A DNA stretch of 64,000 nucleotides from an uncultured Acidobacteriota bacterium (GTDB taxonomy: Bacteria > Acidobacteriota > Vicinamibacteria > Fen-336). Below, piece after piece: positions 4,912 through 56,162 of the stretch; positions within the stretch are counted from its first letter, which is position 1; every line of letters begins with the position of its first letter. The notes under the pieces are model-generated. The model had not been told where the DNA came from. It ran no database searches and worked only from the letters and a program-made list of their open reading frames with translations. The stretch lies in the NCBI GenBank assembly GCA_963720545.1, contig OY970399.1, positions 992,001-1,056,000 of the forward strand. The letters run 5' to 3'. Made by a program: the position numbers and the translations under genes.

Positions 4912-5501
4912 GCGATCCTCTCAGGCGGCGTGTCGTGGTGGGCCTCACCGGCGCCACCGGAGCCGTCTACGGCGTGCGGATCCTCGAGTCGCTGCGCGCC
5001 ATGGACTCGGTCGAGACCCATCTCGTCCTCAGCATGCCGGCGAAGCGCACGCTGGTGGAGGAAACCGACTACACCGTTCGCGACGTCGAGGAGCTGGCGG
5101 ATGTCGTCTACGACAACCGCGACATCGGCGCCGCCATCGCCAGCGGTTCGCTGCGGACCGCGGGCATGGTCATAGCACCGTGCAGCATCAAGACGGCATC
5201 GTGCCTTGCCACCGGCATCACCGACAACCTCATCACCCGGGCCGGCGACGTGGCGCTCAAGGAGCGCCGGCCGCTGGTGGTGCTGGTGCGCGAGTCGCCG
5301 CTGCACCTCGGCCACCTGCGCCAGCTCGCGGCGCTCGCCGAGATCGGCGCCGTCATCCTGCCGCCCATGCCCGCCTTCTACCCGCGCCCGAAGTCGGTGG
5401 ACGACCTCGTCAACCACACCGTGGGCCGCGCCCTCGACCACCTCGGCCTCGACCACGATCTCGTCCCCGAGTGGTCCGGCACCGGCCGGTTCCCGAAATA
5501 G
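4908..5501 (+). CDS. ubiX: Flavin prenyltransferase UbiX
   Basis: VGLTGATGA, IASGS, APCSIKT, LKERRPLV, RESPL and PPMPAFY. Confidence 0.93.
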   Translation: MSDPLRRRVVVGLTGATGAVYGVRILESLRAMDSVETHLVLSMPAKRTLVEETDYTVRDVEELADVVYDNRDIGAAIASGSLRTAGMVIAPCSIKTASCLATGITDNLITRAGDVALKERRPLVVLVRESPLHLGHLRQLAALAEIGAVILPPMPAFYPRPKSVDDLVNHTVGRALDHLGLDHDLVPEWSGTGRFPK

Positions 5502-5894
5502 TCATCGACGGATTGGCGGTCGTTCGCATCCAATCCGTCGATTCCTTTCTTGTCTTTCCCCAGGCGCTTGCGTCCGCCATCGACGGATTGGCTTTCCGTC
5601 TCCGTCCAATCCGTCGATTTCCTTTCCTTTCGTTCCCCAGGCGCTTGCGTCAATGTCCGTTCGTTGTCCGTCCCCCCAGGCGCTTGCGTCAGCGTCCGCT
5701 GCCACAGTGGCGTGCAACTCAATTGCTGCCCCGCAAGTAGCGCGGACTAAAGCCACGGGGTTTTACTCGGCGGGTTCTTCGGGCCAGCGGCAATCGCAAG
5801 GAGCCTCGGAACTTCGGGCTGACGCAAGCGCCTGGGAAACGGAAGAACGGAAATCGACGGATTGGACATGAACGACCGCCAATCCGTCGATGAC
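5501..5894. repeat. Modular intergenic repeat locus 1, with about 75-bp imperfect terminal inverted repeats
   Basis: Three ATCGACGGATTGG-N13/14-CCAATCCGTCGAT hairpins (5504-5542, 5579-5618, 5853-5891); CCCCAGGCGCTTGCGTC at 5558, 5635 and 5674, inverted at 5821-5836. Confidence 0.92.
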
Positions 5895-5895
5895 G

Positions 5896-7287
5896 TCAGG
5901 CTACCTCGGCGTGCGGCAACGCCGGGGTATCGCGGTCGTCGGGGGCCAGCTGCCAGAAGATGAGCGCGGACGCGGCGGTGATCAGGCCGACGCTCAGGAA
6001 ACTCCACTGGAAGGACGGCAGAGCGGCGAGGCCGGCCTCATGGCCGGTGCCGGTGAAGATCGCGAGCAGCAAGCTCGAGCAGGCGACGCCGAGGCTCATG
6101 GAGAGGGTCATCACCATCGACAGCAGGCTGTTGCCAGCACTTGCGTGCTGGGTGTCGAGGTCCTTGAGGGTCACGGTGTTCATGGCCGTGAACTGCAGCG
6201 AGTTGAAGGCGCCGAACAGCGAGAACTGGGCGATCCGGAGCCACTCCGCCTGGCCCGGTGAGATGAAGACGAAGCTCGCCATCGACAGGCCGACGAGCAC
6301 CGTGTTGCCCACCAGCACCTTGCGGTAGCCGAGCCGGGTGACGAGCGGCACCGCCAGCTGGCGCGCCAGCAGGCCGGCGATCGCCACGGGAATCATCGCC
6401 ATTCCCGATTGCAGCGCGTCGTAGCCGAGGCTCACCTGCAGCACCAGCGGGATGAGGAACGGCATGCCGCCGGTGCCGAGCCGCGAGAACAGGTTGCCGA
6501 GGATGCCGACGCGGAAGGTGTGGTTCGCGAACAAGCCCGGCGGGAACAGCGGATGCGGCACGCGCGTCGCGTGCAGCCAGTAGGCGACGAAGGTGGCCAT
6601 GCCGAAGATGAACATCACCAGGATGGTGGCGCGGCGCAGGCTCAGTTCGGCAAGGCCGTCGAGCGCCAGCGACACCGCCATCATGGTGAACGCGAGCATC
6701 AGGTAGCCGATCGCATCGAAGCGCGCCACCTTCAGCCGCGAGTCTTCCATGTACAGGAACGTCGCCGCGATGGCCGCCAGGCCCACCGGGATGTTGATGA
6801 GGAAGATCCAGTGCCATGACGCCACCGCCACCAGCCATCCGCCGAGCGGCGGGCCGACCAGCGGGCCGATGAGGCCCGGGATCGTCACGATCGTCATGGC
6901 GCGCAGGAACTCGCTGCGCGGCACCACGCGTATCAGCGCCAGCCGGCCCACCGGCATGAGCATCGCGCCGCCGATGCCCTGCAGCGCGCGCGACGCGACC
7001 AGCGCGCCGAGGGTCGTGGAACGGGCGCAAAGGAACGAACCGGTGGTGAACACTATGATCGCGCCGAGGAACGCCTTGCGGGTGCCGAAACGGTCGGCGA
7101 TCCAGCCCGAGGCGGGAATGACCATCGCCATCGCCAGGCCATAGGCGATGACCACCGCCTGCATGCGCAGCGGGCTCTCGCCCAGGTTGGCCGCGATCGC
7201 CGGCAGGGCGGTGTTGACGATGGTCGAGTCCAGCATCTGCATGAACGCGGCCACGGCCACGAGGCCCATCAAGGAGCGGTGTTTCAC
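5896..7287 (-). CDS. DHA2-family MFS efflux transporter (MdtD/EmrB-like)
   Basis: FMQMLDSTIVNTALP, GWIADRFG, GPLVGPPLGG and WHWIFLINIPVG; about 14 TM segments. Confidence 0.9.
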   Translation of the reverse strand: MKHRSLMGLVAVAAFMQMLDSTIVNTALPAIAANLGESPLRMQAVVIAYGLAMAMVIPASGWIADRFGTRKAFLGAIIVFTTGSFLCARSTTLGALVASRALQGIGGAMLMPVGRLALIRVVPRSEFLRAMTIVTIPGLIGPLVGPPLGGWLVAVASWHWIFLINIPVGLAAIAATFLYMEDSRLKVARFDAIGYLMLAFTMMAVSLALDGLAELSLRRATILVMFIFGMATFVAYWLHATRVPHPLFPPGLFANHTFRVGILGNLFSRLGTGGMPFLIPLVLQVSLGYDALQSGMAMIPVAIAGLLARQLAVPLVTRLGYRKVLVGNTVLVGLSMASFVFISPGQAEWLRIAQFSLFGAFNSLQFTAMNTVTLKDLDTQHASAGNSLLSMVMTLSMSLGVACSSLLLAIFTGTGHEAGLAALPSFQWSFLSVGLITAASALIFWQLAPDDRDTPALPHAEVA

Positions 7288-7293
7288 GTCAGG

Positions 7294-54353: not shown

Positions 54354-54383
54354 GCGAAACAAGGAATAAGGAGACTTTAGGGA

Positions 54384-56006
54384 ATGCCGAAGCAGATTAC
54401 GTACGGTGACGAGTCGCGGCAGGCGATCCTGCGCGGCGTAAACCGCCTGGCCGATGCGGTCAAGGTGACGCTGGGCCCCAAGGGCCGCAACGTCGTCCTC
54501 GACAAGAAGTTCGGCTCGCCGCTCATCACCAAGGACGGCGTCACTGTCGCCAAGGAAATCGACCTCAAGGACCCGCTCGAGAACATGGGCGCGCAGATGG
54601 TGCGCGAAGTCGCCAGCAAGACCTCGGACGTGGCCGGCGACGGCACCACGACCGCAACGGTGCTCGCGCAAGCGATCTACCGCGAGGGCTCGAAGAACGT
54701 CACCGCCGGCGCCAACCCCATGGAGCTGAAGGCCGGCATCGGCCGCGCCGTCACGGTCGTCACCGAGGAGCTGAAGAAGCTCAGCAAGCCCGTCAAGGGC
54801 AAGATGATCGCCCAGGTCGGCACCATCTCCGCCAACAACGACGAAGGCATCGGCTCGATCATCGCGGAAGCGATGGAGAAGGTGGGCAAGGACGGCGTCA
54901 TCACCGTCGAGGAAGCGCGCAGCATGGAGACGACCCTCGAGGTCGTCGAAGGCATGCAGTTCGACCGCGGCTACCTGTCGCCTTATTTCGTGACCGATCC
55001 TGAGCGCATGGAGGTGGTTCTCGAGAACCCCTACATCCTCATCCACGAGAAGAAGGTCTCGACCATGAAGGACCTCCTCCCGATCCTCGAGAAGATCGCC
55101 CAGCAGGGCGCGCCGCTTCTCATCATCGCGGAAGAGGTCGAGGGCGAGGCGCTCGCGACGCTGGTGGTCAACAAGCTGCGCGGCACGCTCAAGTGCGCGT
55201 CCGTCAAGGCTCCGGGCTACGGCGACCGCCGCAAGGCCATGCTCGAGGACATCGCGACGCTCACCGGCGGCAAGGCGATCACCGAGGATCTCGGCATCAA
55301 GCTCGAGAACGTCAAGCTCGAGGATCTGGGCCGCGCCAAGAAGGTGACGATCGACAAGGACAACACCACGATCGTCGAGGGCAGCGGCAAGTCCAAGGAC
55401 ATCGAAGGCCGGGTCAAGCAGATCCGCGCCCAGGTGGAAGAGACCACCTCCGACTACGACCGCGAGAAGCTCCAGGAGCGCCTCGCGAAGCTGGTCGGCG
55501 GAGTCGCCGTCATCAAGGTCGGCGCCGCAACCGAGACCGAGATGAAGGAAAAGAAGGCGCGGGTCGAGGACGCGATGCACGCGACCAAGGCCGCCGTCGA
55601 GGAAGGCATCGTTCCTGGCGGGGGCGTCGCGCTCCTGCGGGCGCAGAAGGCCATCGACGGCATCAAGGCGAGCGGCGACGAAGCCGTCGGCATCGCGATC
55701 GTCCGCCGTTCCCTCGAGGAGCCGCTGCGCCAGATCTCGGCCAACGCCGGGTTCGAAGGCGCCGTGGTCGTCGCCAAGGTACGCGAGATGAAGGCCGAAG
55801 AGGGCTTCAACGCGCTCAACGAGAAGTACGAGAACCTGGTGGACGCCGGCGTCATCGACCCCACCAAGGTCGTCCGCTCGGCCCTGCAGAACGCCGCCTC
55901 GATCGCGTCGCTCCTGCTCACCACCGAGGCTCTCATCTCCGAGATCCCCGAGGACAAGCCCGCCGCCGCCCCCCAGGGCGGCGGCCACCCGCAGGACATG
56001 TACTAG
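54384..56006 (+). CDS. groEL: Chaperonin GroEL
   Basis: [29 protein letters not shown] and EEGIVPGGG. Confidence 0.98.
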
Positions 56007-56073
56007 GCGTTTGCGAAGCAAACGCCTAGCCTCCTGAGCCGCCGCCCGTTGCGATCGGCTCAGGAGCCTCAGT

Positions 56074-56115
56074 AAAAAAAGGGGAGCCCGACTTCGGGCT
56101 CCCCTTTCCTTTTTA
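56074..56115. terminator. Bidirectional intrinsic terminator
   Basis: A7-GGGGAGCCCG-ACTT-CGGGCTCCCC-TTTCCTTTTT between convergent groEL and the S9 peptidase. Confidence 0.88.
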
Positions 56116-56162
56116 TTTCCGTTCGTCCGTTCTTTCGTTCCAGGCGCTTGCGTCAGCGTCCG
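56116..56162 (+). repeat. Modular repeat locus 4 (pyrimidine tract plus box)
   Basis: CCAGGCGCTTGCGTCAGCGTCCG at 56140-56162 is identical to 5676-5698. Confidence 0.8.

Follow-up and report, generated by a model that had tools for sequence, protein, structure and literature searches.

What is the short hairpin-bearing unit that recurs directly behind stop codons in this stretch of acidobacterial DNA, and how did it get there? The question arises from a 64,000-nt window (positions 992001–1056000 of a single-contig genome of 4.09 Mb, with 68.7% GC and 94.8% completeness), in which four intergenic loci carry a 13-bp hairpin, here called hairpin A, followed by a pyrimidine tail and a conserved box. 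We find that the family formed by these units is real and young, that it is restricted to the species, and that its copies dock tightly on stop codons with a bias towards TA, with modes at −1, +2 and +4 nt; this docking is the unexplained part of the family. Our favoured explanation, to which we assign a probability of about 0.65, is a variant of the CGTC-type repetitive extragenic palindromes (REPs) that has likely been reshuffled by recombination and was possibly spread by an Ssn-type single-stranded DNA (ssDNA) nuclease, now broken. Membership in the class of REPs and bacterial interspersed mosaic elements (BIMEs) is very probable and descent within the CGTC lineage probable, while the odds that an Ssn enzyme acted on hairpin A itself fall slightly short of even.

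Copies, docking and host stop codons

To survey the genome, we allowed up to 3 mismatches in one arm and required at least 11 of 13 pairs, which yielded 70 hits; after one coding chance hit was dropped, 69 copies of hairpin A (36–41 bp) in 38 clusters were retained. The exact hairpin pattern was found at 56 sites as compared to 0 when read backwards, so the number of copies is far above chance. Of the 127 arms found with no more than one mismatch, 119 belonged to hairpins. Nearly all copies (67/69) fell outside the 3350 genes called with our own hexamer gene model. Among the 49 copies that lead an array, 35 begin −1 to +9 nt from a stop codon on the same strand, most often at +2 (14 copies), −1 (8) or +4 (5), and none is docked from its tail side. 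By comparison, 2.2% would be expected under random intergenic placement, and 1.8 docked leaders if each were placed within its own spacer (47 of the 49 could be assigned). One symmetric copy was oriented by hand, and some of the 14 undocked leaders come after other repeat modules or miscalled genes. The pattern that an earlier note had described in the window extends to many further copies, which are polar and located at gene 3′ ends.

The stops at these junctions are TAG in 17 cases, TAA in 13 and TGA in 5, against a background of 37, 18 and 45%, respectively (p = 3e-4). Where hairpin and stop codon overlap, all 8 cases read TA|A and none TG|A, and the tag that otherwise precedes the stem is absent. 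This tag is CGTC in 22/69 copies, GTC in 39/69, TGTC in 2 and CCTC in 1. The stem has 13 bp and opens with an A-T and a T-A pair in 68/69 and 69/69 copies, respectively, the loop has 10–15 nt, and a TTCC tail (54/69) and a box (56/69) usually follow. At about eight loci, A units are inverted at both ends; tandem arrays contain up to four copies, and many loci hold a single unit. One A hairpin (genome 2621790–2621837) is contained in the very 3′ end of a called coding sequence and may extend the protein by a C-terminal tail.

The exact hairpin pattern was found in 0 of 40 relatives and was likewise absent from metagenome and viral contigs; among genome contigs it occurred at a single locus (L009), a strain-level piece of the same organism. 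The contig carrying this DNA close to its beginning is 799 kb long, was binned as Actinomycetota and is probably chimeric. A BLAST search of 300 other genomes of the class did not find the full unit and returned only matches of 20–48 nt in 17 genomes, with E values of 7e-5 or weaker, which were left uninspected and treated as noise. The tail-box pattern occurs 27 times in this genome versus 0–4 times in each of 58 relatives. The literature, as far as covered here (the supplementary lists of PMC3733652 and part of PMC11893778 fall outside), gives no description of the sequence, in agreement with the earlier suggestion of an undescribed REP-like family.

A comparison of orthologous loci, also suggested in the earlier note, revealed relatives without the element at five genes: none of those compared carries it behind purH (23 relatives), NFACT (7), uvrB, boxB or thiolase (19 each). 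At all five genes, the stop is at the same position as in the relatives or within a codon or a few. Because the stop position is kept in relatives that have no element, the element docks on native stops, and we rejected the idea that it supplies the stop codon or truncates proteins. The TAG of uvrB is common to 18 of 19 relatives. At two of the TA|A cases, TAA is rare in the relatives (purH, 1/23; thiolase, 1/19), so the first A of the element likely replaced the third base of the stop codon. TAG-TC as a pre-existing target was not supported, being present in 4/7 relatives at NFACT, with the corresponding junction in only 1/19 at uvrB and 1/19 at boxB. The NFACT 3′ ends of four relatives (L187, L188, L192 and L193) share a conserved TAG-TCGG..GCTATGAT, which looks like the −10 promoter box of the next gene. 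The sequencing runs containing window DNA are soil or unspecified metagenomes, with no RNA run listed among them; contigs from three of four DNA runs extend into the ubiX element and none skips it at the joint, with contigs breaking within the repeat, so that empty sites may exist there.

Within the window (Table 1), the 6 hairpins and 11 boxes reported earlier were all located, 6 of the boxes being exact and 5, all at the NFACT locus, variants; a 12th match with 2 mismatches is found at 45849, outside the four loci. As had been described, the first hairpins start 2, 4, 4 and 2 nt past the stops of ubiX, the MFS gene, the amidohydrolase gene and the NFACT gene, the ubiX and NFACT junctions are identical, both NFACT hairpins carry a double change at pair 8, and tail and box follow the groEL terminator in the same orientation, without hairpin A. 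At the MFS gene, the CGTC tag (5892–5895) is flush with the TGA (5896–5898). Pfam identifies the flanking genes as flavoprotein/UbiX, MFS, amidohydrolase, NFACT and Cpn60. The stretch from the groEL stop to its terminator contains two more hairpins (56003–56075), of which the first, with a perfect stem of 12 bp, overlaps the stop codon.

Table 1. Repeat units and related features; positions are those of the window unless marked as genome
Feature	Position	Strand	Remarks
ubiX stop TAG	5499–5501	+	G of the stop is also the G of the GTC tag
Hairpin A, ubiX locus	5504–5542	+	13-bp perfect stem, 13-nt loop; starts 2 nt past the stop
Pyrimidine tail and box, ubiX unit 1	5543–5574	+	box 5560–5574
Tandem unit 2, ubiX locus	5579–5651	+	hairpin 5579–5618, tail, box 5637–5651
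Tail and box without hairpin, ubiX locus	5652–5690	+	box 5676–5690
Inverted unit behind MFS gene	5821–5895	-	hairpin 5853–5891, tail, box 5821–5835
Lone unit behind amidohydrolase gene	18870–18946	-	TAA 18947–18949, hairpin 18902–18942, tail, box 18870–18884
Module C, 18-bp perfect palindrome	40131–40148	no strand	about 70 sites genome-wide
Unit 2 behind NFACT gene	40193–40335	-	hairpin 40296–40335; boxes 40263–40277, 40228–40242, 40193–40207
Unit 1 behind NFACT gene	40339–40447	-	TAG 40448–40450; hairpin 40406–40445 (A-T variant at pair 8); boxes 40373–40387, 40339–40352
Module B (sister REP)	41492–41532	-	in frame inside NFACT, codons 137–150
Ordinary bidirectional intrinsic terminator behind groEL	56081–56104	no strand	host feature, outside the family
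Tail and box appended to groEL terminator	56105–56154	+	box 56140–56154; without hairpin A
5′-truncated Ssn-type GIY-YIG gene remnant (3′ half)	genome 3862742–3862894 (L010:1343–1495)	-	flanked by two inverted copies of module B
Sister hairpins, 11–13-bp stems	genome 426463, 937755, 2118472, 2447587, 3056185, 1268351		

Compensatory changes and a possible RNA role

Double changes were observed at 5 of the 13 stem pairs, and only 8 of 897 cells were unpaired in a scan that itself selected for pairing. The earlier note had considered the double change at the NFACT locus consistent with selection on structure. We do not retain it as evidence of selection on RNA structure: the sense strand shows no preference for G-U pairs (at pair 8, 1 G-T versus 1 A-C), and template switching is described in PMC7202029 as making imperfect inverted repeats perfect, so a single DNA event can yield a compensatory pair. 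The covariation is real and does not show RNA selection; pair counts cannot separate it from correction of a DNA palindrome.

The unit could nevertheless be a mobile 3′-untranslated-region RNA module selected by the host, serving as an intrinsic terminator, an mRNA-stabilizing stem or a regulator of translation termination. We consider this unlikely. The A copies are strictly polar in the sense direction, and their sense-strand folds score z −2.6 to −3.8, but for the ubiX unit the antisense fold is no worse than the sense fold (z −4.0 versus −3.0). Similarly, in 58 of the 69 copies the first 8 nt counted from the stem base include 5–6 T, and 3 of the 19 ordinary terminators detected by a strict scan are followed by the same tail; all 19, however, start 22–74 nt from the stop, and hairpin A, with its 10–15-nt loop, is unlike them in position and loop. 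A terminating ribosome would block a terminator positioned close to the stop. A terminator role for hairpin A, which the earlier note had entertained as a mobile terminator, is thus unlikely, and tandem arrays of up to four copies would add nothing to a terminator. As the earlier note had proposed, Rfam was consulted, with no match in the window at the gathering score and none in three mosaic loci at E 0.1. The lack of a G-U bias and the absence of the element behind the orthologous genes of relatives also argue against an RNA module. In its favour, docking is tighter than that of the REPs of relatives, and ribosome stalling is reported in PMC12306157 for those E. coli REPs that lie no more than 15 nt from a stop. 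A secondary effect of the A hairpins on translation is plausible by analogy.

Mosaic spacers and a candidate mobilizer

The earlier note had described hairpin, tail and box as one grammar shared by the four loci. The unit itself is real, but it is only the leading part of larger mosaic spacers composed of several repeat modules. In total, 107 spacers hold at least one of ten modules, and 48 of these 107 are convergent, as compared to 121 of 1243 spacers of ≥60 nt. Within individual spacers, modules A, B and C are interleaved with one another. Module B is a second REP with 57 matches genome-wide; in the copy inside NFACT, the variable loop of the protein is ∼9–15 residues longer than in seven relatives. 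The box, previously thought to be non-palindromic, has a small CGC-TT-GCG foldback, and tail and box together resemble the 5′ half of module B with a short deletion, suggesting that the two may be related; an intermediate form has 11 matches genome-wide, a count from which coding hits were not filtered. At least five sister hairpins have unrelated stems and share the stop junction, the AT ends and the tail, so the family is defined by this frame more than by its stem sequence. One of them has a 3-nt loop like that of canonical CGTC REPs.

The pyrimidine tail also trails ordinary terminator-like hairpins, starting from the T tract (window 56105–56154; genome 2802008, 2805456, 1283602 and 3589263). 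Two further spacers stand out by their composition. At L011 (genome 3159336–3159922), an orphan open reading frame of ∼180 codons lies between two module-C palindromes within inverted A arrays, resembling a cargo cassette, and L012 (genome 2621838–2623123) is a 1.3-kb non-coding spacer made almost entirely of repeat modules, with a ∼367-nt tandem duplication.

Two loci bear on turnover. L009 is 97.7% identical to this genome over 5.1 kb, and its second cassette (181 nt) is closer to the paralogous locus at 824860 (96.2% identity) than to the orthologue (84.6%), although the flanks show 97% and 99% identity, which points to ectopic conversion. A hairpin at 2009848 has the same junction on both sides and would fit the collapse of an inverted pair.

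Which enzyme could have moved the units? Our profile scan covered four DDE profiles, Y1 and the four-helix-bundle family. It found no Y1_Tnp/REP-associated tyrosine transposase (RAYT; PF01797) in the genome, so a RAYT, named in the earlier note for such elements, is not supported as the mobilizer, and no match to the four-helix-bundle family. A search of the genome with PF01541 recovered only one short GIY-YIG gene free of repeats and one long gene, and missed the remnant of a putative Ssn-type gene (Table 1). Ssn nucleases are small single-domain GIY-YIG proteins of cd10448 with a Y-Y-E triad, and hairpin repeats flank their genes. The remnant retains only the Glu of this triad, both catalytic tyrosines having been lost. 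Its full-length relative P0001 (105 aa, PF01541, no NCBIfam match) is intact, 88% identical to the remnant, and has Y9, Y20 and E68 spaced like Y6, Y17 and E64 of SsnA. An A hairpin is located at genome 3863048, ∼150 nt upstream of the remnant and on one side only. Directly at the 5′ break of the remnant are 10 nt matching the right arm of the minor hairpin subtype, a hint that an A-type arm was involved in the deletion. In three of the 58 family relatives (L015–L017) the homologue is intact and lies between GTCAT-type REPs whose loops are long and variable, and one such REP is docked as TGA|CGTC|ATC, as at the MFS gene of the window. At least 20 canonical GTCAT REPs were present in 7/58 relatives, including all three with an intact homologue; this association is circular, the pattern having been built from those three, and was given no weight. 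As described in the accessible part of PMC11893778, SsnA cuts ssDNA just upstream of CGTC-type hairpins, and ssn genes are flanked by such hairpins.

In the explanation that we favour, an Ssn-type enzyme would nick ssDNA just 5′ of tagged hairpins, and repair would either copy units to new sites or trim back the sequence on the 5′ side of the tag as far as the reading frame allows, leaving flush junctions. Template switching would keep the arms perfectly complementary, giving rise to the double changes, and ectopic recombination may now swap cassettes between loci. An effect at the RNA level, if there is one, such as a block to 3′ exonucleases or ribosome stalling, would be secondary. A bolder version holds that a GIY-YIG ssDNA nuclease ratcheted the tagged hairpin onto ∼35 stops with a TA bias, sometimes rewriting the stop to TAA, and that the host now uses the hairpins under the terminating ribosome to control translation termination and mRNA decay; we consider this version decidedly unlikely.

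Several observations weigh against the favoured explanation. Module B, not A, brackets the nuclease remnant. The published search motif for Ssn-related motifs (SRM) matches 0 of the 69 A hairpins, and the base after the A stem is T and not the C needed by SsnA for binding; the same motif also missed the REPs beside the intact homologues in L015–L017, and is therefore narrow. Only 3 of 33 canonical REPs sampled from relatives with an intact ssn gene lie within 9 nt of a stop, in a sample that included tandem and coding hits, so the link to Ssn alone does not explain docking. Neither is the excess of TAG and TAA at docked stops explained (30/35; TGA 5 versus 45% in the background, p ∼1e-4). As judged by description in the part of PMC3733652 at hand, CGTC families 1–4 have stems of 8–9 bp and loops of 4–5 nt, in contrast to the perfect 13-bp stem and 10–15-nt loop of A. 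The spread of repeats by Ssn is itself put forward only as a hypothesis in the part of PMC11893778 considered. Finally, L009 contains indel errors and looks like a stray piece in a bin of another phylum, so the cassette swap may be an assembly artefact, and only 3 locus-pair alignments of ≥100 nt at 90% identity were found among 100 mosaic spacers.

The failure of A to match the SRM motif would also be expected if A owed its spread to some other nuclease, for instance that of the multi-copy HNH genes associated with module C, or to an enzyme that has since disappeared. Module C is present inside or upstream of three HNH gene copies, and its interleaving with A and B in shared spacers would fit such a system. 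However, the three HNH matches have no A hairpin within 1.5 kb, and the CGTC tag and AT closure of A are those typically seen in repeats linked to Ssn; we consider this route distinctly improbable. The HNH-type nuclease genes with module C inside, beside or upstream of them are located at genome 85476–85661, 1210479–1211853 and 1268490–1268675, at least one of them apparently frameshifted.

Highly improbable is a miniature inverted-repeat transposable element (MITE), as the earlier note had also considered, with A units as terminal inverted repeats inserted at TA by a DDE transposase: the inverted A pairs at about eight loci, the TA-rich junctions with their TA|A overlaps, and the rarity of TAA at purH and thiolase in relatives would suit it, but outer junctions differ, terminal inverted repeats are not fixed, target-site duplications are absent, interiors are unrelated mosaics varying in length and content, many loci hold a single unit, and the genome has no match to PF13358 (DDE_3/IS630), PF01609 (DDE_Tnp_1, IS4/5), PF02371 (IS110) or PF00665 (rve).

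Relation to known repeat systems

As a REP family confined to one lineage, the family is nothing unusual, since many such families exist. Its interest lies first in how CGTC-tagged repeats spread: the 2013 survey of Di Nocera, De Gregorio and Rocco (PMC3733652) found no transposase, and Chenal et al. (2025; PMC11893778) only hypothesize a role for the nuclease. If the bolder version outlined above were correct, the spread of these REPs, for which no mobilizer is known to date, would become directly testable. In this genome, a young family occurs together with a recently broken ssn-like gene, for which an intact homologue with 88% identity exists, and with a possible strain-level cassette swap. 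Moreover, the unusually tight docking biased to TAG and TAA constrains the mechanism of cutting and repair, and places a 13-bp stem where the terminating ribosome sits.

Like intrinsic terminators, the unit combines a GC-rich stem with T-rich sequence after it on the sense strand; unlike them, it has a long loop, an interrupted T tract, a start at −1 to +9 nt and not ≥22 nt from the stop, and tandem arrays. It shares more with the GTAG REPs, BIMEs and REPINs associated with RAYTs, namely an arrangement in intergenic mosaics behind genes, ends that may include the stop codon, and translation that may be affected where the repeat is no more than 15 nt from the stop. As in REPs and BIMEs generally, the copies are multiple, extragenic, clustered in mosaics and placed behind 3′ ends in convergent or co-directional spacers. 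In contrast to GTAG REPs, they lack a GTAG tag, the base before TAG varies, and no RAYT was found in the genome.

The closest resemblance is to CGTC-tagged REPs, which the part of PMC3733652 covered defines by an unpaired CGTC, TGTC or CCTC tag, A-T pairs at stem positions 1–2, a conserved short tail, inverted dimers with the tags outside, proximity to gene 3′ ends and the absence of a flanking transposase, all of which the family has. It differs in its TTCC-type tail, which runs into the pyrimidine tract and box where CGTC REPs have CCA, in its frequent tandem arrays and in a tag that is often overlapped or replaced by the stop codon; the host lineage is absent from the five phyla listed there. 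With the NTS/Ssn-related motifs of PMC11893778, again as far as that account extends, it shares a GTC-AT head; as in those systems, inverted hairpin repeats enclose a GIY-YIG gene of a single domain, which is a remnant in this genome and intact in three family relatives. Departures from the SRM are the missing C after the A stem and, at the gene, flanks formed by the sister module B, which has an altered head of its own, and the loss of both catalytic tyrosines. The proposal of an undescribed REP/MITE-like family thus stands in its REP-like part, although the general kind is already catalogued as CGTC-tagged REPs and Ssn-related motifs: the family works like a CGTC/SRM repeat and lies outside families 1–4 and the published SRM motif.

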